Under the pieces are notes generated by a model. The model had not been told where the DNA came from and searched no databases. It was given only the letters and a program-made list of their open reading frames with translations. The position numbers and the translations under genes were made by a program. A stretch of DNA of 62,516 nucleotides, from positions 1 to 62,516 of IMG/VR virus record IMGVR_UViG_3300023199_000083. One strand, written 5' to 3'. Source of the stretch: a virus. Its lineage: Duplodnaviria; Caudoviricetes. Shown here one piece after another: positions 34,253-44,408 of this stretch (its first letter is position 1; the number at the start of each line of letters is the position of its first letter).

Positions 34253-34465
34253 TCATGTGGCGTTCACACGGGGCCCTCCAAAATGCTCAGCGGCACACGT
34301 CGCGCAAAAGTACCCGCCGCAATAGTAGCACCGGAACGCTAACCGAACTGGCATCTCCGTACCACACTCACACGGCACTTTGCCCTCTTTTGCACATTTG
34401 AATTGCATCGCGATGAACTCCCGCCACGCTAGCTCTAAATCCGGGGTGGCCGCAATCCTTCGCAT
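34253..34465 (-). CDS. Zinc-finger cassette protein
   Basis: CECG...CYYCGGYFCATCAAEH; ATG directly after GTT. Confidence 0.6.
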   Translation of the reverse strand: MRRIAATPDLELAWREFIAMQFKCAKEGKVPCECGTEMPVRLAFRCYYCGGYFCATCAAEHFGGPRVNAT

Positions 34466-34550
34466 AACAATGCGATGCAACGGATCCGCGTTTATCGTCT
34501 TTCATAATGGTTAATCTTTTCTCCGGCCCCGGTTACGCGGGACGTTCTAC
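34462..34550 (-). repeat. attC-like site M4
   Basis: GTAGAAC...GTTATGC (minus); arms only partly matched. Confidence 0.75.
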
Positions 34551-34870
34551 GGCTCGATCGATCGCACCGCTGAAGCGATTGCAGCCGCGGCCGTCAATGT
34601 CCCGTTCACCTTGTCCAATGACTGACGACACTCACGGAGCATCACGGCAGCTTTCGGCAACCCTTGCCGGTTCGCGTCCACGATCAGATGTTCCAGAATG
34701 TCCTGCATCAAGTAAATCAACCGTTCCTCTTGCCCCACAGTTCGCGGATCGGTCACAAGTGATCCGTGATCGTTTCTCGCGTAGAGCAAGTCTGCAATCC
34801 GATGAATCGCCGTAGAACCATCGCATGCACGGGAGCCGTCGTCCACGTCGGTTTTTGAATCCATGTCCAT
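34547..34870 (-). CDS. Cassette protein (start inside the attC loop)
   Basis: GGAGAG-ATG in the M3 loop; stop overlaps M4. Confidence 0.65.
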   Translation of the reverse strand: MDMDSKTDVDDGSRACDGSTAIHRIADLLYARNDHGSLVTDPRTVGQEERLIYLMQDILEHLIVDANRQGLPKAAVMLRECRQSLDKVNGTLTAAAAIASAVRSIEP

Positions 34871-34901
34871 CTCTCCGGCCCCGTGATGCGGGGCGTTATC
34901 C
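34812..34901 (-). repeat. attC-like site M3
   Basis: GGATAAC-GCCCCGCATCACGGGGCCG...CGGCTCCCGTGCATGCGATG-GTTCTAC. Confidence 0.85.
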
Positions 34902-34903
34902 AG

Positions 34904-35161
34904 CTATTCACACTGGCATTCTTCTACTGCCTTTTCGCATTGTCCGCAGCGAGAGACTCGCCATCGCCCAACCGCGATCAATTCGTTTGCTTCTGCACAC
35001 GATTCAGCCGTGGGGCATGTCGCGTGCAAATACTGATTCGGGTTCCGTCCGTCGTTTTCGCTCATCGGCCGCACTGTGCTAATCGTATCGCCACGCCTGC
35101 ACCACCGCTGGATAACAAGCGGATCAACCGGAGTTGCCGACGACGCTGTTTTTGTATGCAT
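34904..35161 (-). CDS. Cassette protein (start inside the attC loop)
   Basis: GGGAGAG-ATT-ATG in the M2 loop. Confidence 0.6.
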   Translation of the reverse strand: MHTKTASSATPVDPLVIQRWCRRGDTISTVRPMSENDGRNPNQYLHATCPTAESCAEANELIAVGRWRVSRCGQCEKAVEECQCE

Positions 35162-35200
35162 AATCTCTCCCGGCAACCCGGTTATCCTTGGACGTTATCT
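35110..35200 (-). repeat. attC-like site M2
   Basis: AGATAAC...GGATAACCGGGTTGCCG...CGGCAACTCCGGTTGATCC...GTTATCC. Confidence 0.88.
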
Positions 35201-35470
35201 GGATGATTCCCGCTTAGCTTTGATTCGTCGCATTGCCTCACGTTGCATCCGTTTCGGTTCCTTACACGCTTCCCAGTCGCCGGACATCTCATCGACGTAC
35301 AGCATATTGGTCGGCCCAAATCTGACAACGAGCCGCTTCGGCGGTCCTGCGCGGTCGTATGACTCTTGACCTACCAACACGACAACCGGCTTATCCAGCC
35401 TCAACAGTCCTGTCGGTGTTGGGCACTTCTCATCAGGCAAAAACCAGTACCAACCGGGTCGCTTCGGCAT
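35195..35470 (-). CDS. Cassette protein (PxxPGWYW motif)
   Basis: MPKRPGWYWF; TAA stop lies within AGATAAC. Confidence 0.7.
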   Translation of the reverse strand: MPKRPGWYWFLPDEKCPTPTGLLRLDKPVVVLVGQESYDRAGPPKRLVVRFGPTNMLYVDEMSGDWEACKEPKRMQREAMRRIKAKRESSR

Positions 35471-35478
35471 ACGTCACC

Positions 35479-35570
35479 AGATAACAATCACATGCACTCA
35501 AAGCCGCGAAGACGTGCTCGTGCAAAATGGTCAATCAACCGTCGAGACCCGGTAAACACAAACGTTATCC
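35479..35570 (-). repeat. attC-like site M1 (chimeric arms)
   Basis: GGATAAC...GTTATCT (minus). Confidence 0.7.
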
Positions 35571-35762
35571 GCCAGGATTCACCACGGAACGCACTGCCGC
35601 ATCTTTGGCTTCCAACAGTTGTCGCAACGATACGGTCCTTTCGGGGCCGCCGTCGATCGTTTCGACGATAGTTGCCGCAAGGTCGTGGAACGGCTTCGAC
35701 ACGCCTTGCAGATGTTCCGGCAAATGACCGTACTCAAACCACTTCATCATTCGCTCTTCCAT
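35565..35762 (-). CDS. Small helical-hairpin protein, possibly an Acb2/Tad1-like sponge
   Basis: FEYGHLPEHLQGVSKPF..LA...GPERTVSLRQLLEAKDAAVR; AAGGAG RBS. Confidence 0.6.
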   Translation of the reverse strand: MEERMMKWFEYGHLPEHLQGVSKPFHDLAATIVETIDGGPERTVSLRQLLEAKDAAVRSVVNPGG

Positions 35763-36069
35763 TTCCAACTCCTTCACTGAAGTGTCCACCAGTTGCCACA
35801 GCGCCACGAACGAGTCGCCGAGCGGAAAAAAATACATGTGCCGGCTGGTCACGTAAAACGGATAACAAAGCGATGAACGACGAGCCACCACCGCCCTCGT
35901 GATTCGACGCGGGTTCGTCGTAGATCGCTGTTTGATTGCTCATCGTTTTTCTTTCGTGGCCCGTGGCCGGGTTATCGCAGACGCTATTTGATTCACAAAA
36001 GCCCCTTGCGGGAACCGATCCCGCTCCTCCGGTCGACCCGGTACTGCACATCCTGTTGGCTCGCTACTC

Positions 36070-36098
36070 AACATAACCCATCCACAACCCCAGTTAAC
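36070..36098 (-). promoter_or_regulatory. GTTAAC-family promoter for the minus accessory arm
   Basis: GTTAAC-17-TATGTT. Confidence 0.6.
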
Positions 36099-36605
36099 AT
36101 TCTACAGGCAAAATTTCACCCCGTTTCATTGACCACAAAGCCGCAACCCAAATTCAACGTTCAAATTTTTGGAAATGCAACCTCATGAACAGATTGACGG
36201 TCACTATCTCAGAATCGTGCCGGAAGCCAGGCCCAAAAAGAATCCAAATCAGGAAAACTGCCGACATCGAACCTCTCTCATTTGCAAGGACGTTTTGGTG
36301 TCTGGAGCCGGTGGGGGGCACCCCCTCGCTCGCGACCCCCCCCCCTCCCCTATGATTTGACCGTACGGGCTGGTGGATTCAGCCCCGGTAGCCTGCCAGC
36401 CTGGCGCTATGCCGGACCCGCCAAGGGCGTCGATTCCCCCCTTAGCCCCGCACCAGGCCCCGCCGCACCTTCACCAATTCTTCACCGCATGCGTTCATTC
36501 CCCTGTCCCGAACGTGAGCCAGCTCACGCTCACGGCCCGTTTTGGCAACGGATGCCAGTGTACCGGTCGGCTAGTACACCGAGAGCCCCCCGGCGCCGGG
36601 AGCCG

Positions 36606-37034
36606 CTACGGGGGCGGATCCTCCCCCTGCGGCCGGGTCCGGCGCTGGACCGATGGCGACGTGAGCCCCGGATGGAGCGGGCAGTCGGCACGAGGGCAGC
36701 GACAGCCGCGGGGCCGGCCCTGGCGCCCGAGCCCGCCACGGATGCCGGCGGCCTGCTCAGCCTCCATTCGGGCGCGGGTTGCTGCGTATTGGCGGCGACG
36801 GGCGTCCACATGGGCTACTCGGTCGATGCAGTCGTCGAGGTGGACCAGGACCCGGCCATCGGCGAGTGTCAGCGTGCGGACGCGGGCTAGACGGACCCAT
36901 TCTCTGACAGTGCTATAGCTCCGACCGCACGCTACGCTCGCGAAACTCACCGAGCTGTATCGTGAATAGGCTCGTTTGCGCTCTTTGGCACGTTTTCTTG
37001 CACGTTTTCGGCGTTTTGCTCGTTTCTTGGCCAT
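36606..37034 (-). CDS. Basic-tailed winged-HTH-like DNA-binding protein
   Basis: K/R-rich N-terminus, then ASVACGRSYSTVREWVRLARV...GRVLVHLDD. Confidence 0.55.
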   Translation of the reverse strand: MAKKRAKRRKRARKRAKERKRAYSRYSSVSFASVACGRSYSTVREWVRLARVRTLTLADGRVLVHLDDCIDRVAHVDARRRQYAATRARMEAEQAAGIRGGLGRQGRPRGCRCPRADCPLHPGLTSPSVQRRTRPQGEDPPP

Positions 37035-37090
37035 TGTACTATATCAGACCCGGGCGCTTTGTCCGACTCTCGATTTTCCTCTAATTTTCT

Positions 37091-37119
37091 GTTAACCGTC
37101 GTCGCAAACTGGGTATCCT
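37091..37119 (+). promoter_or_regulatory. GTTAAC-family promoter
   Basis: GTTAAC-17-TATCCT. Confidence 0.6.
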
Positions 37120-37193
37120 ACTGTAGCCCGCACCGGAGCGGGAAGTAGTTGACACCACACTTAGGGCCGCGCAAGCGGCGGGAGGTTGACCGG

Positions 37194-37427
37194 ATGATGA
37201 TGAAATGCAAACACGCCACCACCACCACCGACGCCACGAGCGTCCGCTGCTACGCCGGGCCCGTGGCGGTAGCGGGACACGAGAACCGTGCCGCGCACGG
37301 CTGCATCACCCAGGTAGAGAGGTGCCTGGACTGCGGCGCGGAGCGGCGCGTCAACGTCAACGGCGTCCACTACGAGGTGGGGCCGTGGGGCCCGTCGCGG
37401 TCCCAACTGGCCCGCGAGGCCGAATAA
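37194..37427 (+). CDS. Hypothetical protein
   Basis: GGAGG RBS; CKH...CLDCGAERRVN. Confidence 0.6.
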   Translation: MMMKCKHATTTTDATSVRCYAGPVAVAGHENRAAHGCITQVERCLDCGAERRVNVNGVHYEVGPWGPSRSQLAREAE

Positions 37428-37708
37428 TCGCCAATCGCCAAGAGACAACTTTAACAGGGGAAACCAGGGGAAACCATGTTTCATCAATCAAACCTAGGCG
37501 CATTCGCGCCGGTCAGCTGTGCCGACATGGACGGATACATTCCCGAGGCCGGAGACGGACCATGGGATCTCTCGTACGATAGGGCAAGAAGATGAAAACC
37601 GAAATGAATCGACCCGACAAGGGGTGGGCGGGCGTCAACGCCGACCCCGACGACATCGCCGACGACATCGCCGATGCGATCACTGACGACGAAATGGAGG
37701 CTGCCCGG

Positions 37709-37796
37709 TAGAGCCAGCGGTAACCGAGTCGCCGCCAAGAGAATCAGATTTCAGAATCAGGTGGACCGGCGACTTCGGTTCACCGCATGGTTATAA
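37709..37796 (+). repeat. attC-like site P1 (degenerate left core)
   Basis: GCGGTAACCGAGTCGCC...GGCGACTTCGGTTCACCGCATG-GTTATAA. Confidence 0.75.
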
Positions 37797-37804
37797 GGAA
37801 AACA

Positions 37805-38137
37805 ATGGCCATCTACAACGCAGAAATCACCCGAATCGACACTAACGAAATCAGCAACATTGGTCGCGTTGCAAATAGCGGAAAGATGAACATGTTCCGA
37901 GCAATGCAAGCCAACAGCGAAACGGTTTGCAACCTGTTTGACGATTGCGGCAATTTTGAGTTCGTCTGGAACACTTCCGCGAAGGTGTGGGAGTTTTTCA
38001 ACGAGGCTGGTGAATTGGTCGGACGCATGAAGGCAGAACGCGACACAGAAGCCGAGCACGCCAAAAAGGTTGCCTATTATAACGAATGCAAAGCAGCATA
38101 CGAGGCAGCCAATGTCGCGGACGCCGGGCAAAGGTAA
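37805..38137 (+). CDS. Cassette hypothetical protein
   Basis: AAGGA RBS after P1. Confidence 0.7.
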   Translation: MAIYNAEITRIDTNEISNIGRVANSGKMNMFRAMQANSETVCNLFDDCGNFEFVWNTSAKVWEFFNEAGELVGRMKAERDTEAEHAKKVAYYNECKAAYEAANVADAGQR

Positions 38138-38327
38138 GCGGATCGGGCGTCCGCCAAAGGAAAACGCAAAGGTTGCGATTTCGGGGCGACGATCAGGCAG
38201 AAATCGAGGAAGTGTCACCATGCGACATTGAGGAACGTGCGGGGCGCGGGTCGGTTTGGCGGCGAACGCTAGCCGGCGAGCTGATCGACGATCGATATCA
38301 CGGCACCGTTTCGGTCGAGTGATTTTT

Positions 38328-38356
38328 GTTAACCGACCCGGCCCAGCGGTTATATT
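38328..38356 (+). promoter_or_regulatory. GTTAAC-family promoter; leader nearly identical to 44343-44400
   Basis: GTTAAC-17-TATATT-AGGG.AGACAACAACACCATTTT. Confidence 0.7.
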
Positions 38357-38395
38357 AGGGTAGACAACAACACCATTTTACAGGGGAAGAAGACG

Positions 38396-38941
38396 ATGAC
38401 CGACATTTATTTTCAGGCCGACGATTTTTCTACGGTATCCCTCGACGGGGGATACCGGATGTGGCGACGCAACGAGGGCCAGGTCGCGTCATTTGGCGGC
38501 TACCACGCCCGCGGCAAGATCGTGGGCGGCGAGCATTGGACCGGCCGCGACATCGCGACCGGCGGCATGGGCAACAGCGGTGTGCGGGTGATCGTTCCGG
38601 TGAGCCGCGAGGCTCGCGCGCTCGTGCGGATGCACGTCACCGAGTGCTGGGTCAATCGGTACGGCATCTCGTACAGAGAGTCCGATGCCTTGTACGCGCA
38701 CCGCGGCCCGTACAAATACGAGCTGATCGCGGACATCTGCGCCGCGATCAATGACGAGGCGTGCCACGATGCGTTCTTGCGATTCCCCGGCGTTGGGCCG
38801 GGACTGCACCACGACTGGTGCGCTCGATGGGGCGACGTGGTTGCCCCATATCTTACCCGTTCATGGCCCCGCAACGAGGCCTTGATTGAGGCGGTGAATC
38901 ACGTGATTCGCGCAACGTCGCGTGAGTTCCAGTCCGCCTAA
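38396..38941 (+). CDS. Hypothetical protein
   Basis: Follows the promoter; TAA lies within GCCTAAC. Confidence 0.7.
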   Translation: MTDIYFQADDFSTVSLDGGYRMWRRNEGQVASFGGYHARGKIVGGEHWTGRDIATGGMGNSGVRVIVPVSREARALVRMHVTECWVNRYGISYRESDALYAHRGPYKYELIADICAAINDEACHDAFLRFPGVGPGLHHDWCARWGDVVAPYLTRSWPRNEALIEAVNHVIRATSREFQSA

Positions 38942-39044
38942 CGCTTGGGATCAACGGGCACCGACGAAAAAGGTTTGAACTACGGAAGATTCATGGAACT
39001 ACAAAACAACGCCACCGGTGCTCCGTTGCATCCCATTGTTACTA
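38936..39044 (+). repeat. attC-like site P2
   Basis: GCCTAAC..TGGGATCAACGGGCACCG...CGGTGCTCCGTTGCATCCCATT-GTTACTA. Confidence 0.9.
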
Positions 39045-39712
39045 TGCCGTTCGCCCCGTATTACGACGAGGACGGGATTACGATCTACAACGCGGATTGC
39101 CGGAAAGTGCTGCCGTGGCTGGCGAGGGTTGACGTATTGCTGACCGATCCACCATACGGCATCGGTGCAGCGTCCGAGACGTTTACGCGCAAAGGAAAAC
39201 AGACCGGAAAATCGTTGGCGGTGAGTGGCGTGAATTACGAGCCAAGCAAATGGGACAGCGAACCGCCACCGCGTTGGTTTCTCGATGCCGCGCAAGAGTG
39301 TGCGGAAACGTCGATACTGTGGGGCGGGAATTATTACGGGTTGCCGTCGTCGTCGTGTTGGTTGGTGTGGGACAAGGACAACGGCGAAAACCTGTACGCG
39401 GATTGCGAGTTGGCGTGGACGAACATGCAGCGGGCGGTGCGGAAATTTAAGTGGAAGTGGCACGGCATGTTGCAGGAGAACATGGGCGACAAGAAAGAGC
39501 ATCGAGTTCACCCGACGCAAAAGCCGTTGGCGTTGATGCGGTGGTGTTTGTCGTTGGTTCCAGATGCGGAAACAGTGTTAGACCCGTTCGCGGGCAGCGG
39601 CACCACGTTGGTGGCCGCAAGGTTAGAAGGCCGCAAGGCTATTGGGATCGAGATCAGCGAGAAGTATTGCGAGTCGGCGGCAAACCGGCTGGCACAACGG
39701 ACGTTGTTCTAG
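39044..39712 (+). CDS. DNA N4/N6 methyltransferase (beta class)
   Basis: LTDPPYG...HPTQKP...VLDPFAGSGTT...GIEI; alternative start at 38993 in the attC loop. Confidence 0.95.
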   Translation: MPFAPYYDEDGITIYNADCRKVLPWLARVDVLLTDPPYGIGAASETFTRKGKQTGKSLAVSGVNYEPSKWDSEPPPRWFLDAAQECAETSILWGGNYYGLPSSSCWLVWDKDNGENLYADCELAWTNMQRAVRKFKWKWHGMLQENMGDKKEHRVHPTQKPLALMRWCLSLVPDAETVLDPFAGSGTTLVAARLEGRKAIGIEISEKYCESAANRLAQRTLF

Positions 39713-39716
39713 GTCA

Positions 39717-39809
39717 TGGTAACGCTGGCCGTCACCGGGCGGCGGGAGAAAATTATGACTACAAAAAAAACGCAGCTACCGCCGCTCCGTGTTCACGCAA
39801 TTGTTATGC
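39717..39809 (+). repeat. attC-like site P3
   Basis: TGGTAAC...GGGCGGCGG...CCGCCGCTCC...GTTATGC. Confidence 0.85.
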
Positions 39810-40126
39810 GCCCCGGTCCCGGCTGGAAACACGTTACAGGGCCAGTGTGGGACCACGTAAGCGGAGTGCGATTGCACATGAGCGGACTGGTTCGGTTGCC
39901 GGATGGCAACACTGTGTCGGCCAACCAGTGTCCGCAATCGAAGTCCGCCGACCGTGCCGTGCGAATTGCCGGAAGCCGTCGCCGTGGACTGATGGTGTGG
40001 GCGCTGTGGTGCCTCGATCATCGTTGCAAGTTTGACGAGGTGTACTATGGCCATCAGTGCAATGTCTGTGGATTGTTTTTCGCGCACGGCTGCGCCCCGT
40101 GGGATGCCGTGCCTGAGTACGCATAA
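39755..40126 (+). CDS. Cassette protein (start inside the attC loop)
   Basis: GGGAGA-AAATT-ATG. Confidence 0.65.
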   Translation: MTTKKTQLPPLRVHAIVMRPGPGWKHVTGPVWDHVSGVRLHMSGLVRLPDGNTVSANQCPQSKSADRAVRIAGSRRRGLMVWALWCLDHRCKFDEVYYGHQCNVCGLFFAHGCAPWDAVPEYA

Positions 40127-40210
40127 CGCCTAAATTCACCGGGCCGCCCCCGGTGATCGTTGAATTGAGAACCCGCGCCGGGGGCGGCCCGGTGCAATTT
40201 TTGGTTATCC
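40121..40210 (+). repeat. attC-like site P4
   Basis: GCATAAC..AAATTCACCGGGCCGCCCCCGG...CCGGGGGCGGCCCGGTGCAATTT..GTTATCC. Confidence 0.92.
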
Positions 40211-40237
40211 GCTGTTTGCGGGGCCGCGAAAGGAAAG

Positions 40238-40528
40238 ATGGACATGTTTATCGCGTATCAGAAGTGGCAAAATCCGAGCTACATGAGTGGGCCGCGCTAC
40301 TCGCGCCGAGTTTACGGCACAGGAGAGACGGAGCAAGAAGCGCTTTTTTTCGCGACCCACTACCGGCGCAATGGTGAGTGGTGGACGTATGGGTCTGGGA
40401 GTGGACACCCCAACGCCTCAGACTTGAGCGTCGAGGAAGTGGACGACGACGAAGTGGACGACGACGAAGTGGACGTCGAGGAAGTGGACGACTACGACTA
40501 CGACGACGAAGTGGACGACTACGAATGA
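40238..40528 (+). CDS. Cassette protein with an acidic EVDDD-repeat tail
   Basis: AAGGA RBS; 15-nt GAAGTGGACGACGAC repeats. Confidence 0.7.
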   Translation: MDMFIAYQKWQNPSYMSGPRYSRRVYGTGETEQEALFFATHYRRNGEWWTYGSGSGHPNASDLSVEEVDDDEVDDDEVDVEEVDDYDYDDEVDDYE

Positions 40529-40589
40529 TCCGCCATTTTTCCGTTGCCGTGTCCCGTGTCTTCGGATGCGGGGCGCGGCGCGGTTTGGC

Positions 40590-40680
40590 GGATAACGCTA
40601 CCCGTAACCGGGCCGCGAGGGTTGAGCCGACCACGCGAGAACGCCCGCAATCGCGGCTCCGGTGCAATTTTTTGTTATGC
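40590..40680 (+). repeat. attC-like site P5 (chimeric)
   Basis: GGATAAC...GTTATGC; left arm as P6, right arm as P4. Confidence 0.85.
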
Positions 40681-41183
40681 GGAATGGGTTTGCAGGTCAC
40701 GAAAACACAACGGCCAACCATCACGATTGGATTACGCCGCGCCACATCGTTGAAGCGTTGGGGCCGTTTAATCTGGACCCGTGCCAATCGTTGAATCAAC
40801 CGTGGAAGTGTGCCGAAAGTGGATTTACGGTCAATGATGATGGGTTGTCGAAATTGTGGCGGGGCGTTGTGTGGATGAATCCACCATACGGCAGGGCGAT
40901 CGAGAAATGGATGCGACGGCTTGCCGAGCACGGGAACGGAATCGGGTTGATGTTTGCGAGAACCGATACGCGGTGGTTTCAGGATCACTGCCAGCATCAC
41001 GCGGGCATGCTGTTCCTGCGTGGTCGTGTTCGGTTTCACGATGGAAACGGCAACCAGTTCGACAGGAAGGGCGGCGGGGCGTGTGCAACGTCGCCAAGTG
41101 TGTTGGTCGCGTTCGGTGACGAGTGCGGGCAACGATTGATTGCTTGCGGTTTGGACGGCTTACGGGTCGTGCCTTCCGCATAA
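40677..41183 (+). CDS. Phage N6-adenine DNA methyltransferase (Dam-like)
   Basis: WITP..IVEALGPFNLDPC...DGL...VWMNPPYG...ARTDTRWFQ...FLRGRVRF. Confidence 0.92.
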   Translation: MRNGFAGHENTTANHHDWITPRHIVEALGPFNLDPCQSLNQPWKCAESGFTVNDDGLSKLWRGVVWMNPPYGRAIEKWMRRLAEHGNGIGLMFARTDTRWFQDHCQHHAGMLFLRGRVRFHDGNGNQFDRKGGGACATSPSVLVAFGDECGQRLIACGLDGLRVVPSA

Positions 41184-41269
41184 CGCTACCCGTAACCGGG
41201 CGGCGACGAGAAACATTGATTTGCGATTCACGCGGCCATCGCCGCTCCGTGTGCATCGGGTTGTTATAC
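41178..41269 (+). repeat. attC-like site P6
   Basis: GCATAAC..ACCCG..GGGCGGCGA...TCGCCGCTCC..CGGGTT-GTTATAC. Confidence 0.88.
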
Positions 41270-41287
41270 GGCGGCGGATCTTGGGAG

Positions 41288-41512
41288 ATGAAAATGAGTC
41301 AGTACTATCACGCTGGCGCGATGGACGAAAATAACGATGTGCTGTGGAGCGATCATACCCGCCGTTCCGCGGCGGCAGCGGAACGGGAAGCGTTAGAGAT
41401 GGCCCGCAAAACTGGCAGGAGAGCAATAGTGGAAACGTGGGACCGCTTGCACGGGCTACGCCCAGGAGACGCCAATGCGGTCAATGATGCGTACATGGTT
41501 GAGTCCGTATAA
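41288..41512 (+). CDS. Cassette hypothetical protein
   Basis: GGGAG RBS; TAA lies within GTATAAC. Confidence 0.65.
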   Translation: MKMSQYYHAGAMDENNDVLWSDHTRRSAAAAEREALEMARKTGRRAIVETWDRLHGLRPGDANAVNDAYMVESV

Positions 41513-41615
41513 CGTCAGCGATCAGCGGGGCCGGGGAGCAACCAAAGAGGTAAACCATGCGTGAAGATTCAGAACAGCCGGAAGATTTCGGCTCCGTTGC
41601 ATCGCATTGTTCGTC
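41507..41615 (+). repeat. attC-like site P7
   Basis: GTATAAC..GCGATCAGCGGGGCCG...CGGCTCCGTTGCATCGCATT-GTTCGTC. Confidence 0.9.
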
Positions 41616-41796
41616 GGCTCAATCTGTGCAGCGATGTCGCATACAGTCGGACACGCGATACGGTGCGGTTCACCGTCTCGGGCGGTTGGGGACCGAGACA
41701 GACTGCGGATTGAATATAAGCGACGGTGGCTGGTGGGTTTTGGGCAATGAATTAAAACACGCAGTTACATGTCGAGCATGCTTGAAAGTTCGATGA
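41557..41796 (+). CDS. Cassette protein (H...CG...CxxC; start inside the attC loop)
   Basis: GAGG-TAAACC-ATG in the P7 loop. Confidence 0.65.
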   Translation: MREDSEQPEDFGSVASHCSSAQSVQRCRIQSDTRYGAVHRLGRLGTETDCGLNISDGGWWVLGNELKHAVTCRACLKVR

Positions 41797-41896
41797 ACGT
41801 CAAGGATAACCGAGCGGAGATTAAACGTGGAAAACCAAGAGACTCAAAGGGCAACCGAGACGGACAATTCCGCTTCGGTTCATCCGTTTGTTATCT
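41792..41896 (+). repeat. attC-like site P8
   Basis: GATGAAC..GGATAACCGAGCGGA...TCCGCTTCGGTTCATCC..GTTATCT. Confidence 0.9.
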
Positions 41897-42021
41897 GGCA
41901 ATGTCGTTGCGGCTGGATGGTGGAAGATGTCTGTTACCAACAGGCACGAATAGATTTCGAATGTCCGAAATGCCACGATCGCAAGTTCAGCGAATTTCTG
42001 CGTCGAAATTTAGCCAGATAA
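41827..42021 (+). CDS. Cassette zinc-ribbon protein (start inside the attC loop)
   Basis: GGAG-ATTAAAC-GTG; CRCG...CPKC. Confidence 0.65.
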   Translation: MENQETQRATETDNSASVHPFVIWQCRCGWMVEDVCYQQARIDFECPKCHDRKFSEFLRRNLAR

Positions 42022-42113
42022 CGGTTTGATTAACCGGCTCGATGGGCGAGCCGGACGTTGACTTACTACAAAACCTGACCGCCCATCGAGTCCGGTTCAA
42101 TCAATTGTTCGCA
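42016..42113 (+). repeat. attC-like site P9
   Basis: AGATAAC..TTGATTAACCGGCTCGATGGGCG...CGCCCATCGAGTCCGGTTCAATCAATT-GTTCGCA. Confidence 0.92.
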
Positions 42114-42121
42114 GGTGAATC

Positions 42122-42442
42122 ATGGTTGACGCAGCCACGAAAAAACGAGTTACGCAACAGCACGTAGACGCGATCGCAGCAAATTCCGGCCCGGTATATG
42201 GCATCCGCTTGATTCGCAGTTTGCCGATCGGCACATCAGGAATGACGCAGGCGATGCCGGGGCGTGATGATCTTGCGAAAGTTCGTGACGTCAGCGAGAG
42301 AACGGCAGCCGGTTATGAGGTGCTGTTGAGCCACTATCGTCAGCAGCAAGATGAGGTCAAGCGATTGACGGCGTTGATACGCAATGTCATTGCAGGCCGG
42401 TGGAGCGTGACAGATCTACAGGAAGCAATCGGGGACGTGTAG
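42122..42442 (+). CDS. Cassette hypothetical protein
   Basis: AGGTG RBS after P9. Confidence 0.65.
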   Translation: MVDAATKKRVTQQHVDAIAANSGPVYGIRLIRSLPIGTSGMTQAMPGRDDLAKVRDVSERTAAGYEVLLSHYRQQQDEVKRLTALIRNVIAGRWSVTDLQEAIGDV

Positions 42443-42607
42443 TTCTTGCGAACAAGAAGTATACAGGCGTCTGTATAAAACGGTGGATTGATATGGATAA
42501 CGACCAAGTTGACCGGGCCGATTGCTAAGGAGAAAAGGTGAACAGTAAAAAAATCTTTGACAGTTCGGGTGAGCCGGCCAGAAATTAACAATCGAAGGGA
42601 AACGAAA

Positions 42608-42838
42608 ATGACGACCGCAACGAAAATTTACCGAGGGATGATCGAGACGCCCGCATTGCCCCGACTGCGCGAAATCGCCAAGGAGTGCGGCGGCGAGGTC
42701 GAGGAGATGCGCGATTTCACGAACGTCTGGCCAAACCGCAATACCGATCCTGGTACGCGACACCGACGATTAGGCCGCACCCTGGTGGCGCAGGGCTGGG
42801 ACGGCAACGTGCTGTACGGTGTGACCTGCTGGGATTGA
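42608..42838 (+). CDS. Hypothetical protein
   Basis: AAGGGA RBS. Confidence 0.6.
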   Translation: MTTATKIYRGMIETPALPRLREIAKECGGEVEEMRDFTNVWPNRNTDPGTRHRRLGRTLVAQGWDGNVLYGVTCWD

Positions 42839-42849
42839 GGAGCCGAGAC

Positions 42850-43044
42850 GTGGCGAAGAAAAAGCGAGGACGAGGCCGGCCGGCGACGGGCAAGACACCC
42901 GTCCGCCAGTTGGGCCGGATCGACGATGAGAAGTGGAGATTGATCGTCCGCGCGGCGGAACTGTGCGGGCAGTCGATCACCGAGTTTTGTATGGAAACGC
43001 TGGTCAGACGTGCCAAGCGTGTCATCCGTGACCGTGACGGATAA
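42850..43044 (+). CDS. Ribbon-helix-helix-like regulator
   Basis: GRGRPATGKTP..LGRIDDEKW..IVRAAELCGQSITEF. Confidence 0.65.
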   Translation: MAKKKRGRGRPATGKTPVRQLGRIDDEKWRLIVRAAELCGQSITEFCMETLVRRAKRVIRDRDG

Positions 43045-43130
43045 CGCTTGGGATAACCGAGTGGCGACGAAAGATTTTACCAGTGGATTGACGCGGACTT
43101 CGCGGCTCCGTGTTCACCGCTTTGTTATGC
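43039..43130 (+). repeat. attC-like site P11
   Basis: GGATAAC...GTTATGC; imperfect arms. Confidence 0.75.
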
Positions 43131-43148
43131 GGCGAATGGAGTGATCTC

Positions 43149-43385
43149 ATGACCCCGAATTGCATCCTCTTCGTGCGAGACGGGCTACTCTCGTTTCGTA
43201 GGAACACTCAGACGCTTCCGCAGGGCGCTGTGCCCCTCGAATACGATTGCACAAATCTGGCACACCGCGAGGTACGTAGAGTCGCGGAAGATTGGAACTG
43301 GGAGTGGTGTGGTAACTCCTACCCCGCACGTCTGCCGATCGCCCCCGATACATGCGAGAGGGCGGTTGGCGTCGATACCATGTAG
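43149..43385 (+). CDS. Cassette hypothetical protein
   Basis: GGAG RBS after P11. Confidence 0.6.
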   Translation: MTPNCILFVRDGLLSFRRNTQTLPQGAVPLEYDCTNLAHREVRRVAEDWNWEWCGNSYPARLPIAPDTCERAVGVDTM

Positions 43386-43434
43386 AGCCACATAACTAAG
43401 ATTGGATGTTCACGAAACGGATTTCGTGAAGATC

Positions 43435-43520
43435 GCATAACGTCCGCGATAACGCGGCCGAGGGAAACTATGAGCAAATCAGAAAGCGTTGACGGCTCGC
43501 GTTCATCGCCGTTGTTATGT
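43435..43520 (+). repeat. attC-like site P12
   Basis: GCATAAC..GCGATAACGCGGCCG...CGGCTCGCGTTCATCGCC..GTTATGT. Confidence 0.88.
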
Positions 43521-43955
43521 GCTGATCCCACGGATTACGTCGTCACGGTGCCGATGAATTTCACCTGCGAAGACGCGCCCGGCATGAAGGGTCTCGACGC
43601 TTGGATTGCGGAAGGTGACGCAGCAGGCGATCTAAGCAGCGGCCAAGAGTGGTGGTTCACGACCTACGGTGTGTTGCCCGTATTCGTGCCTGGATGCCGC
43701 CTCTACGTCGTGTGCGAGGATCGGTTGCGAGGTTACGCACCAATCACGCGGATCATGTTCGACGAGTCGCGTGTGAAATATGGCAAGGCCCCGCTGGCGT
43801 TCGTCCGTGAAGGTGGGGCCGTGGCCGTGACGATCGGCGAGAAGATTACCGGATTTCGGGGCTACCGTCGCCGATGGTGGGACCGTGCCGACGAGATACC
43901 GTTTCCCGATTGGAAAACGGCAGACCGAAGAAACCGTGCCCGTGGTGGCACATAA
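43470..43955 (+). CDS. Cassette protein, possibly PUA/EVE-like fold (start inside the attC loop)
   Basis: WIAEGDAAG...PGCRLYVV..RLRGYAP...ITGFRGYR. Confidence 0.6.
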   Translation: MSKSESVDGSRSSPLLCADPTDYVVTVPMNFTCEDAPGMKGLDAWIAEGDAAGDLSSGQEWWFTTYGVLPVFVPGCRLYVVCEDRLRGYAPITRIMFDESRVKYGKAPLAFVREGGAVAVTIGEKITGFRGYRRRWWDRADEIPFPDWKTADRRNRARGGT

Positions 43956-44039
43956 CGCTTGTGATATTTCGTTGCGAGCGAACGATTAACCATTGAGAGA
44001 AAACATGAACGAGCAATCGAAATCATCACATTGTTCTAC
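43950..44039 (+). repeat. attC-like site P13
   Basis: ACATAAC..TGTGATATTTCGTTGC...GCAATCGAAATCATCACATT-GTTCTAC. Confidence 0.88.
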
Positions 44040-44229
44040 GTCCCTTGCCGACGCAATGGAGACGGTGGAACTGTGGGTAGATTTATGGGCCGACGATCAG
44101 GCAGAAATCGAGGAAGTGTCACCATGCGACATTGAGGAACGTAAGGTCATTGCGGCAGTGCATGTCGTGTTGAACGCGATCAAGTCAAAGGGGGCCGTCC
44201 CCGATGTGGGTGATGGCTACCGGTTGTGA
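44005..44229 (+). CDS. Cassette protein (start inside the attC loop)
   Basis: GAGAG-AAAAC-ATG in the P13 loop. Confidence 0.55.
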   Translation: MNEQSKSSHCSTSLADAMETVELWVDLWADDQAEIEEVSPCDIEERKVIAAVHVVLNAIKSKGAVPDVGDGYRL

Positions 44230-44342
44230 TCTCACAAAGTTGCCGAGTCGTATTGGGACGGCCAATCGTGGCGAGAACTAACGCGACACAATCCAGCGGT
44301 ATAACGACTGAGATTCGGCTCGGCAGGAAGCCGAGAATCTTT

Positions 44343-44371
44343 GTTAACCGCACCTGCCCAGCGGTTATATT
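44343..44371 (+). promoter_or_regulatory. GTTAAC-family promoter
   Basis: GTTAAC-17-TATATT. Confidence 0.7.
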
Positions 44372-44408
44372 AGGGCAGACAACAACACCATTTTTTAAAG
44401 GGGAAACC

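Follow-up and report, generated by a model that had tools for sequence, protein, structure and literature searches.

The window analysed here, the entire stretch of 62,516 nucleotides, is a complete phage genome (62.5 kb) that carries 17 copies of one imperfect hairpin, split over two divergent arrays and all co-oriented with transcription (Table 1). The elements measure 86–130 nt (n=17) and end in loops that cannot be aligned, giving the terminal structure that varies from site to site. No PF00589 match, and hence no tyrosine recombinase, was found in the complete 62.5-kb phage genome, and the array is therefore classed as a CALIN, a cluster of attC sites lacking an integrase. For want of an integrase gene, the phage does not have the complete integron platform of intI, attI and Pc. 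The phage would thus possess two divergent, integrase-less cassette arrays within its early-gene region. The central region between them, which includes a GC-rich stretch, presumably holds divergent early promoters and/or an origin; its ORF at 36606-37034 (minus strand) has no Pfam match. Related contigs contain up to 12 attC sites per fetched locus, and a tyrosine recombinase is present in only 8 of 35 related viral records.

Table 1. Hairpin elements, start signals and selected genes of the two arrays. Bit scores are those of CM R1 matches; P9, missed by the CM, and P13 were picked by eye.
Feature	Position	Strand	CM score (bits)	Start signals and remarks
attC M1	34462..34550	-	59.9	loop ATG 34505 out of frame with next gene
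attC M2	34812..34901	-	70.3	loop SD + ATG 34870/34864, in frame; gene end 34547
attC M3	35110..35200	-	77.1	loop SD GGGAGAG + ATG 35161, in frame; gene end 34904
attC M4	35479..35570	-	61.2	no loop start; gene's own ATG 35470, GTT +14 nt
attC M5	35860..35989	-	57.7	long loop; candidate GTG 35891/35888 in frame; gene end 35565
Central region between arrays	35990..37707	.		GC-rich; GC skew changes sign
attC P0	37708..37796	+	48.3	left box AGC, not AAC; no loop start; SD + ATG 37805 downstream
attC P1	38936..39044	+	63.4	loop SD + ATG 38993 in frame; N6_N4 DNA methyltransferase to 39712
attC P2	39717..39809	+	74.3	loop SD GGGAG + ATG 39755 in frame; gene to 40126
attC P3	40121..40210	+	70.8	no credible loop start
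Acidic repeat protein gene behind P3	to 40528	+		own SD + ATG 40238/40244
attC P4	40590..40680	+	69.9	no loop start
Dam-type methyltransferase gene behind P4	from ATG 40677	+		SD-less start inside GTTATG
attC P5	41178..41269	+	73	no loop start; own SD + ATG 41288/41294
attC P6	41507..41615	+	57.8	loop SD + ATG 41557 in frame; gene to 41796
attC P7	41792..41896	+	62.4	loop SD GGAG + GTG 41827 in frame; Cys-rich 64-aa gene to 42021
attC P8	42016..42113	+	65.1	no loop start; own SD + ATG 42122
P9, degenerate attC-like	42495..42596	+		left arm present, right arm gone; own SD + ATG 42608
TacA1-like gene just before P10	42850-43044	+		Pfam-supported
attC P10	43039..43130	+	71.9	no loop start; own SD + ATG 43149
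attC P11	43435..43520	+	65	loop SD GAGGG + ATG 43470 in frame; 161-aa gene to 43955
attC P12	43950..44039	+	66	AT-rich, weak fold; loop ATG 44005, weak SD, in frame; gene to 44229
P13, short attC-like hairpin	44299..44347	+		followed by repeated promoter-like block + ATG 44409

Are these palindromes genuine integron recombination sites, as the initial annotation had proposed? We aligned 150 elements from the window and 23 viral loci; in this alignment, which was fitted to the model, 95.5% of cells pair, compared to 70.1% in shuffles, and covariation is seen at 16 of 21 pairs (16 of 17 in the long helix), a score reached by none of 500 shuffles. The R-box triplets are near-invariant over the 150 rows (A 149, A 146, C 149; G 150, T 150, T 150). 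Among the 16 window copies that were aligned, the C of the left box and GTT are present in all and AAC in 15, with M5 reading AGC, as does P0, which lies outside this alignment. An unpaired central spacer of 4–5 columns on the 5′ side and 3 columns on the 3′ side separates the helices. The 3′ arm carries an extrahelical T (148/150) and an extrahelical C or G (149/150) with six bases between them (positions 7 apart), and in 35 of the 150 elements a third such base midway, a spacing identical to that published (G16/T23 and G16/A20/T24); on the 5′ arm, no unpaired column is occupied in more than 5 rows. Read on the gene-sense strand, the order is 5′-xTAAC (R′)-spacer-L′-variable loop-L″ (with two to three extrahelical bases)-spacer-GTTAT (R″)-3′.

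The same hairpin family also occurs in bacteria, with 248 matches in 80 loci, mainly of Planctomycetota and Acidobacteriota. An integron integrase scoring above the TIGR02249 cut-off was detected in all five such bacterial genomes, but in none of 14 control genomes, and the bacterial arrays adjoin the 5′ end of intI, an arrangement found for the family, not for this phage. In the four intI-adjacent arrays (L201, L202, L203 and L205), 81 of 81 matches lie on the canonical bottom strand. Similarity between the attC sites of the window and those of bacteria is limited to the arms (20–31 nt). Given their structure and this bacterial context, the palindromes can be identified as genuine integron attC sites, and the earlier proposal is borne out by the AAC/GTT boxes, the spacer, the extrahelical bases and the intI-linked arrays of the family. 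The phage sites belong to the same attC family as the sites in chromosomal integrons of Planctomycetota and Acidobacteriota. As the phage has no tyrosine recombinase, any IntI must be supplied by the host, and it is this host IntI that would catalyse cassette shuffling.

About half of the window sites carry translation signals in the loop. The eight loop starts listed in the initial annotation, all ATG except the GTG at 41827, exist and open into the downstream gene, and the peptides said to be encoded by the arms (APLHPIV, LRVHAIV, GSVASHCS, ASVHPFV, SRSSPLLC, TPVDPLV and SRACDGS) were reproduced exactly. Seven of the eight have an SD-like tetramer 4–15 nt upstream, as had been claimed, while 44005 is preceded by GAGAG only; structure prediction leaves both SD and AUG unpaired within the hairpin loop at seven of the eight sites. 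In the window, GTT is indeed crossed in each of the three frames. A ninth candidate, the GTG of M5, was absent from the earlier list. The out-of-frame ATG at 34505 (MKDDK), also reported there, opens a 45-aa ORF (34368-34505), and the frame of the next gene behind M1 opens at ATG 34465 inside GTTATG.

We extended this survey to a non-redundant set of 201 elements, taken from the window and from related viral contigs. A strict loop SD+ATG is found in 45 of them, and in 42 of these 45 the frame stays open for 40 codons or more beyond the element. Under looser criteria, an open loop with ATG and SD is seen in 46 of 203 elements read in the gene sense, in 2 of 200 when these elements are read in the opposite sense, and in 1 of 90 bacterial intI-linked attC sites. 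Loop starts in frame with the downstream gene thus exceed chance. The distance from ATG to GTT is most commonly 45 nt (18/48), and SD-ATG spacing is conserved. Loop and downstream start signals did not prove complementary, judged against a loose downstream criterion (Fisher p 0.87). The in-frame count and the near-zero strand and bacterial controls support the initial reading of the loop codons as starts: very probably, they start proteins that take their N-termini from the right arm. The variable loop would then act as a translation initiation region for about half of the window cassettes and about a quarter of those family-wide. SD and ATG lie exposed in the open loop at the apex, the typical distance from there to GTT being 45 nt. 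The ribosome would read through L″/R″ and produce a leader whose length is about 11–24 aa for window proteins and reaches 27 aa in contigs of related phages, often of the form ...APVHxIV; the remaining cassettes would rely on an ordinary SD+ATG a few nt past GTT.

Do the genes behind these loops have starts of their own? The earlier claim that several have no credible one holds for some. In the 43470 gene, homology to 30 relatives begins about 4 codons past GTT, and no in-frame ATG or GTG lies between GTT and the residues invariant in these homologues; 29 of the 30 aligned homologues start 1–3 residues before the invariant D22, where the window has no in-frame ATG or GTG. The 41827 gene lacks an in-frame ATG, GTG or TTG before 41917, a position that, as read from the sequence, lies inside its Cys motif. 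Other genes do have an SD-less ATG at GTT or shortly behind it (39044 and 39806), and these could be alternative starts. One might therefore suppose that the loop ATGs are unused and that translation begins at or after GTT (for example at the ATG in GTTATG) or by reinitiation, the in-frame loop codons being incidental. These two ATGs and that at 40677 fit such a scheme, as does L029, where TGTTAG closes the loop ORF and a separate ATG at +19 is available to the methylase; Planctomycetota may, moreover, depend little on SD. We nevertheless regard it as quite improbable in view of the 42 of 45 loops in frame, the conserved SD-ATG spacing and 45-nt distance, the near-zero controls, and the genes without any other usable start, which comprise the 43470 and 41827 genes and the methylase homologues of L004 and L030, whose only start is the loop ATG.

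If loop codons start proteins, to which cassette does the loop belong? Extrahelical bases on the 3′ arm correspond to the bottom-strand configuration, for which the crossover is placed at A|C in the 5′ AAC (Nivina 2016). From its sequence features, the phage gene-sense strand is identified as the attC bottom strand, and because of this the A|C crossover of the left AAC would fall immediately behind the TAA, TGA or TAG that closes the preceding gene. A crossover at this point makes the attC site and its downstream gene one cassette, and the loop start would therefore move with its own gene. The bottom strand also carries the Pfam-supported genes of the window (two methyltransferases and the TacA1-like gene) and all loop starts, and the canonical cassette, with the ORF on the top strand and attC at its 3′ end, is not seen in the window. 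Crude strand tests of viral arrays gave 58 sense versus 15 antisense calls (168 segments) and, in a second test, 85 versus 23; for bacterial arrays of the family the gene strand was mixed or gave no clear call.

Every module common to different phage arrays consists of an attC site and its downstream gene, from AAC to next AAC. The L017/L057 module (99% identity) extends from -11 to +297, with the next AAC at +295; L023/L057 (99% identity) from -2 to +393, next AAC at +379; L038/L062 from +8 to +389, next AAC at +395; and the L048 repeats from -1 to about 594, next AAC at 570. In these four groups the modules end within about 25 nt of a left AAC box, except for one L048 pair that continues through the next attC. 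An attC with its upstream gene alone is common to no pair, near-identical loci cut by the locus end being set aside. Population variants, taken from assembled contigs of one study rather than from reads, agree with these boundaries. The 285 nt between 41510 and 41796, the whole P6 unit, are missing in three other runs, with seven letters in common at the joint (AACGTCA of the P6 and P7 left boxes), and the joint 42017->43437 skips 1419 nt in three runs with ATAACG in common, one end being the P8 left box. Both of these best-supported deletion joints lie in left AAC boxes and are best read as A|C-to-A|C excision of whole units. Extrahelical bases, orientation towards intI, shared modules and deletion joints are thus four agreeing lines that point to the same polarity.

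These four lines contradict the central proposal of the initial annotation, that the loop travels with the upstream cassette and that cassette order sets both expression and frame. In that proposal the attC top strand is equated with the gene-sense strand and crossover occurs at G|TT, so that the SD and ATG of the loop belong to the preceding cassette and reordering switches translation and frame. Several observations speak for it: loop starts are real and use three frames, the ATG at 34505 is out of frame with the next gene, one attC type can precede unrelated genes, the right end of P10 coincides with one of the population joints, and top-strand recombination is described in assays, at lower frequency (Qi 2023, PMC9892861). 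The position of the extrahelical bases on the 3′ arm, the uniform bottom-strand orientation beside intI, the composition of every shared module and the two best joints instead indicate the bottom strand and the left AAC, and free reshuffling of loops and genes would erode the in-frame proportion, 42 of 45, towards one third. We consider a switch of this kind highly improbable. With SD, start, ORF and stop within one cassette, reshuffling leaves each gene translatable in its own frame, and order-dependent control of translation would be confined to rare right-end exchanges. Such exchanges can occur: the right end of P10 (43130) is a variant joint in two to three runs, where 223 nt are replaced by 300 other letters (X2, X3) and 318 letters precede another copy of the right arm of P10 (X2, X4), and a loop may here, exceptionally, be separated from its own gene.

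Could the hairpins, though derived from attC, now serve at the RNA level only? They might display starts in loops, stabilise mRNAs or mark processing sites, and be shuffled, as PeSL are, by homologous or illegitimate recombination between arms without any integron integrase. The phage has no integrase, all of its elements, in both divergent arrays, point in the direction of transcription, and loop starts are common in viral yet rare in bacterial intI-linked copies (46/203 versus 1/90). The elements are mosaic, with joints at the right end and inside loops (40630->42578 runs from loop to loop, one end in P9), and PeSL-mediated shuffling offers a precedent (PMC2839356, PMC4122927). Many attC pairs are 85–100% identical while both flanks are unrelated, and the P4 type precedes different genes in the window, L024 and L032; attC and gene are therefore not inseparable, and homologous or illegitimate exchange is also at work. 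An exclusively RNA-level role, however, would have no need for the DNA-level features that are retained, namely the AAC/GTT boxes, the spacer and the identity and spacing of the extrahelical bases. Nor does it account for best joints with only 6–7 nt of identity, which fall precisely in the AAC box rather than in the right arm, although this is just as conserved, or for module ends about 25 nt or less from the left AAC box, the one L048 pair excepted. We judge it unlikely, if less so than the two preceding alternatives. What probably explains the observations jointly is a set of genuine attC sites in integrase-less divergent arrays, in which attC plus downstream gene forms the cassette and the loop serves as its initiation region.

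What might a phage gain from this arrangement? Tentatively, and with somewhat less than even confidence, we suggest that phages of Planctomycetota and relatives bank early, probably counter-defence genes as inverted integron cassettes, with the host-type attC as a portable 5′ expression module. If so, SD and ATG in the loop, with the arm as leader, would render any fused ORF translatable wherever host IntI puts it. The recombinogenic bottom strand would lie on the non-template (possibly lagging-template) strand, favouring folding and rapid shuffling, and the arrays would be a phage mirror image of bacterial integron defence banks.

CALINs in phage genomes have already been published (Qi et al. 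2023, PMC9892861). Those described there share with ours the imperfect hairpins with AAC/GTT boxes, unpaired spacer, extrahelical bases and variable loop, the absence of an integrase (in virulent or uncharacterised phages), DNA methyltransferase cassettes and, in one phage, divergent attC directions. They comprise at least two predicted attC sites each, compared to 17 sites in two divergent arrays here; unlike them, our ORFs lie on the bottom strand, each attC ahead of its own gene. The main text of that study makes no mention of a start codon, of ribosom- or of Planctomyc- terms. ORF-11/ORF-18 in attI1 and short ORFs inside attC aid translation of the next cassette (PMC8876359), and there, as here, SD and ATG within an integron recombination site affect the gene behind it. 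They are the known counterpart of the upstream-cassette switch, being short ORFs of their own that lie in the site of the neighbouring cassette and work through translational coupling, whereas the phage loop ATG is predicted to start the cassette protein itself, with the arm as a fused leader from the same cassette. Synthetic attC sites placed in arbitrary or coding sequence (Nivina et al. 2020, PMC7439510) likewise illustrate that recognition is structural and that the structure is tolerated in functional sequence; those sites were engineered, whereas natural arms here appear to be translated in three frames. The PeSL (promoter/stem-loop) motifs of T4-type phages, too, are repeated intergenic regulatory motifs that flank small ORFans in plastic regions and delimit shuffled modules, but they are promoter-terminator motifs recombining by homology, with neither attC geometry nor a link to an integron integrase (PMC2839356, PMC4122927). 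Against this background, the 5′ polarity of attC and the start signals inside its loop appear to be new.

Almost all small genes of the region are separated, as read from the sequence, by one imperfect hairpin with the layout xATAACG, short spacer, left arm (GATAACCGGGCC...), variable loop, right arm (...GGCTCCGTGTTCATC), spacer and TTGTTAT. Sixteen aligned copies give 21 consensus pairs, with compensatory changes in 16. The covariance model built from these copies replaced noisy crude motif, fuzzy-regex and fold scans and recovered 17 copies in the window, all co-oriented with the genes; an Rfam gathering scan of the window returned no matches. A viral collection was searched with a degenerate right-arm pattern, yielding 62 stretches, and in 47 of these loci the model found 207 matches, arranged as co-oriented arrays of at most 12 elements. 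The three weakest viral matches (E 0.066-0.089) were dropped before scripted analyses, 6 of 221 elements were excluded from anchor-based analyses for want of a clear AAC or GTT anchor, and removal of duplicates and of elements near locus ends left 192-203 for the loop-start and stop-at-box counts. The virus record is complete (62,516 bp, direct terminal repeats, completeness estimate 100); its arrays form a small-gene region in which transcription diverges from about 36-37.7 kb, where GC skew changes sign.

Positions of the hairpin elements and of other features of the phage genome
Feature	Positions	Strand	Remark
attC array, five copies	34462-35989	-	covariance model
attC array, twelve copies	37708-44039	+	covariance model
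Degenerate element	about 42495-42596	+	by eye only
Degenerate element	44299-44347	+	by eye only
Acidic-repeat gene	40238-40528		DDEVD-like 15-nt tandem repeats (40414-40530)
TacA1-like antitoxin domain gene	42850-43044	+	second ORF of two-gene unit with 42608-42838
Portal-sigma ORF, 1419 aa	26028-30287	-	Mu-type portal domain (residues 101-486), sigma-70 regions 2 and 4 (708-879)
ResIII/SNF2-type helicase, 1269 aa	48736-52545	-	LAGLIDADG and Hom_end matches at residues about 231-296
Direct repeat pair 1	38183-38238 / 44087-44142		98% identity
Direct repeat pair 2	38322-38379 / 44337-44394		91% identity
Inter-array stretch	36282-36900		GC-rich, with C-run

What are these hairpins? A model-fitted alignment of 150 viral elements keeps AAC and GTT nearly invariant and shows covariation in the long helix (95.5% paired vs 70.1% in shuffles). 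Two unpaired bases are constant on the 3' arm, a T followed by a C/G closer to the R box, and a third may lie halfway between them; the 5' arm has no such bases. As defined in the relevant part of Nivina et al. 2016, an attC site has AAC in its R box, an unpaired central spacer, extrahelical bases near L'' and a variable terminal structure, and the extrahelical spacings given there, G16/T23 and G16/A20/T24, are those of our elements. The shared R box, spacer, extrahelical bases and terminal structure therefore support their identification as attC sites. The same pattern and model detected 248 elements in 80 bacterial loci, mostly of Planctomycetota (Pirellulaceae, Planctomycetaceae) and Acidobacteriota (Blastocatellia, Pyrinomonadaceae). 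All 5 element-bearing genomes tested, but 0/14 control genomes, had an integron integrase whose score exceeded the curated TIGR02249 cut-off and, in regions fetched around intI genes, the arrays start adjoining the 5' end of intI. Once elements had been found there, RNase III-type processing sites, N4-type hairpin promoters and the start-associated sequences of cluster-K mycobacteriophages were set aside as explanations. No tyrosine recombinase was found in the complete phage genome, so its arrays are CALINs, clusters of attC sites that lack an integrase.

Does a cassette borrow its start codon from its neighbour's recombination site? The initial annotation held that the loop travels with the upstream cassette, making gene order a translation switch. 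Four independent lines contradict this: they identify the gene-sense strand as the bottom strand of attC, with the predicted crossover between A and C of the R' AAC, at the left end of the site. First, the extrahelical bases lie on the gene-sense 3' arm, as on an attC bottom strand. Second, all 81 model matches in four bacterial loci around intI (L201, L202, L203, L205) fall on the canonical bottom strand, an assignment based on the position of the array next to the 5' end of intI; in L204, near two intI genes, the strands are mixed 4/5. Third, the modules common to synteny-broken phage arrays consist of AAC, attC and the gene behind it, up to the next AAC. Counted from the box, such modules run from -11 to +297 in L017/L057 (99% identity; next AAC at +295), from -2 to +393 in L023/L057 (99% identity; next AAC at +379), from +8 to +389 in L038/L062 (next AAC at +395) and from about -1 to 594 in the four copies within L048 (next AAC at 570). 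With near-identical loci cut by a locus end set aside, no pair shared only an attC and its upstream gene. The cassette repeated in L048, from provirus record G025, comprises an attC and a 139-aa gene; its four copies in one array match at 87-91% nucleotide identity and have other cassettes lying between them, which is evidence of duplication within the array.

The fourth line comes from variant genomes, observed on comparing assembled contigs from four DNA runs of one study, one of which may be the window's source; the variants occur in contigs of the three other runs. A joint from 41510 to 41796, present in three runs, lies within seven letters, AACGTCA, common to both left boxes, and the missing 285 nt are exactly attC 41507-41615 plus its gene. 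In a second joint, from 42017 to 43437 (three runs, 1419 nt missing), two left boxes are joined within ATAACG. Both equal excision from one A-C point to another, with the upstream stop codon kept. A third variant is without the unit formed by attC 40590-40680 and the Dam gene.

The cassette would accordingly read C-G-[left arm]-[loop, often with SD and ATG]-[right arm]-GTT-[ORF]-TAA, and one cassette would hold all translation signals, including a stop codon overlapping the R' box that follows. TAAC is present at 141 of 215 anchored left boxes (ATAACG 107, CTAACG 21, GTAACG 12, ATAACA 1). Because all translation signals sit in one cassette, integron-type reordering would leave start and frame unchanged.

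The loop starts themselves, eight of which the initial annotation had listed, stand: all eight exist, with a reading frame that continues into the gene downstream, and seven have the SD-like motif claimed for them as a tetramer, 44005 having GAGAG only. The arm-encoded peptides it quoted were reproduced from the sequence, frames 0, 1 and 2 across GTT are all in use, and the MKDDK loop ATG (34505) is indeed out of frame with the next gene. The predicted RNA fold is a long hairpin with SD and AUG in an open apical loop at 7/8 of these sites, the exception being 43950-44039. Elements that have no loop start are followed by genes with an ordinary SD and ATG 14-37 nt past GTT (40238/40244, 41288/41294, 42122, 42608, 43149, 35470), and the Dam-type methylase, also devoid of a loop start, has an SD-less ATG inside GTTATG.

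Among 201 non-redundant elements of the window and the viral loci, 45 have a strict SD+ATG loop, and 42 of these are open for at least 40 codons past the element. Such a share of in-frame loop starts (93%) is a prediction of the single-cassette model, not of free reassortment of loops and genes. With a looser SD list, open ATG+SD loops number 46/203 on the gene-sense strand, 2/200 on the other strand of the same elements and 1/90 in bacterial attC sites adjoining intI. The signals are stereotyped, e.g. GGAGGAAAAACT-ATG; ATG lies 45 nt upstream of GTT in 18 of 48 loop starts, and the frame across GTT is 0 in 29, 1 in 14 and 2 in 5. A predicted leader peptide is MTTKKTQLPPLRVHAIV, a common ending being ...APVHxIV. 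Start signals in the loop and those downstream showed no complementarity in a test (p 0.87) whose downstream criterion was too loose. Taken on sequence grounds, these observations support the loop starts as putative translation starts.

Homologues help to place the start codon. For the 161-aa protein that opens at 43470, 681 relatives were identified; of the 30 that were aligned, 29 have their first residue 1-3 positions ahead of the invariant D22, and one alone shares the N-terminal extension (...SSPLLCAD). Homology begins about four codons past GTT. Since no in-frame ATG or GTG lies between GTT and the invariant residues of this gene in the window, its start must be the ATG in the loop, or else a TTG at -2 that lacks an SD. 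One methyltransferase family stands behind attC sites in seven arrays: the members in the window, L004 and L030 have an in-frame loop SD+ATG at -45, that of L046 an ATG at -88, that of L029 its own ATG at +19 (a 16-codon loop ORF ends at TGTTAG) and that of L032 a TTG at -2 only. Homologues thus carry different attC-derived N-termini, as had been predicted.

Some observations sit less easily with this model. Full-length identity of 85-100% links many attC pairs whose 300-nt flanks are unrelated on both sides; the similarity ceases a few bases from the R' and R'' boxes at most. Window site 40590-40680 recurs at 93-97% identity before other genes in two viral loci (L024, L032), and some elements look chimeric. 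Among the population joints, one maps to the right end of 43039-43130, where other sequence and a second copy of the right arm are inserted; a further one falls inside loops. Exchange by homology, or at the GTT end or close to it, therefore takes place as well. Rare GTT-end exchanges could place a loop start before a new gene, and the out-of-frame ATG at 34505 may be a relic of one.

Where might the phage sites come from? Against the fetched bacterial loci, window attCs gave arm matches only and no full-length near-identical counterpart, so that they point to no particular host. Homologues of an L062 protein (in L202) and of L017 and L054 proteins (in L116) occur in bacterial arrays in the same attC-first arrangement; among bacterial arrays the viral methylases match only the opposite-strand methylase of L203. 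Gene polarity in the bacterial intI-linked arrays varied with the test: longest ORFs, antisense v sense, were 8 v 2, 10 v 3, 3 v 0 and, in L202, 5 v 7; stops at the box were 12 sense v 16 antisense of 90; GC3 gave 20 v 20; and the Pfam matches were a strong one to a methylase (antisense) and one to a HAD hydrolase (sense). G037, labelled Planctomycetaceae bacterium SH139, holds many cassettes at 353-nt spacing in its integron array (L202). It also has what looks like a multicopy IntI-related recombinase gene: partial TIGR02249 matches score the same in seven copies (120.9 bits at model positions 5-180, plus 82 bits at 238-314), and an eighth copy reaches 118 bits.

Functional matches among the phage cassette genes are two methyltransferases and one antitoxin-like gene; ten other cassette ORFs matched no PHROGs family and gave a single Pfam match, below cut-off. 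The acidic-repeat product is very acidic and could be a DNA mimic; variant contigs jump from 40246 to 40521 in its gene, skipping 274 nt. The TacA1-like gene, for which no toxin partner was recognised, may be a candidate for counter-defence against toxin-antitoxin systems. Elsewhere in the genome, the fusion of portal and sigma factor is unusual, and the virion might deliver a sigma factor; the matches within the helicase suggest an intein or an inserted homing endonuclease. Two direct-repeat pairs flank the plus-strand array, and the first repeat is where the X1 run's contigs end. The second repeat begins with an attC-like TTTGTTAAC, contains TTGTTA-N-TATATT with SD+ATG after it, and may be a phage promoter block. 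The inter-array stretch shows many single-base differences and small indels among runs.

How would such cassettes work? At the DNA level, the single-stranded bottom strand would fold into a substrate for an integron integrase, which must be host-supplied because the phage has none and any tyrosine recombinase occurs in only 8/35 related viral records. In both arrays the bottom strand serves as the non-template strand during transcription and, if replication begins between them, would be the lagging-strand template too; we speculate that either position would favour its folding. At the RNA level, the hairpin loop would present SD and AUG, and the ribosome would then melt and translate L''/R''. 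The use of three frames makes it probable that the leader peptide is a by-product of arm conservation.

A known problem of integrons is that cassettes may lack start signals and that attC hairpins obstruct ribosomes; if our model is true, the phage polarity answers it with start signals in the hairpin loop, and the tempting idea of an order-dependent translation switch is corrected. Integron cassettes would then not be merely a bacterial store occasionally found on phages: a whole phage group would make plastic early regions from them, with gene polarity opposite. A natural attC arm would be translated in three frames, which bears on the sequence freedom of attC recognition. The model also predicts that phage genes are reshuffled by host integron integrases during infection. 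Defence cassettes of integrons have recently been described, and reshuffling would tie them to phage counter-defence cassettes, as which the two methyltransferases and the antitoxin-like gene would count here.

Phage CALINs with methyltransferase cassettes and IntI1-active attC sites were reported by Qi et al. 2023 (PMC9892861), whose main text mentions neither start codons nor ribosomes nor Planctomycetes. A limited literature collection yielded no paper on attC-first cassettes with start signals in the loop. For a neighbour's recombination site that carries start signals, ORF-11/ORF-18 of attI1 and short ORFs within attC are precedents, reviewed in PMC8876359. Outside integrons, PeSL motifs, going by part of their published description, are the closest analogue of the phage attC elements; among integrons, the full-length identity of attC sites with unrelated flanks resembles the homogeneous attC sites of chromosomal integrons.
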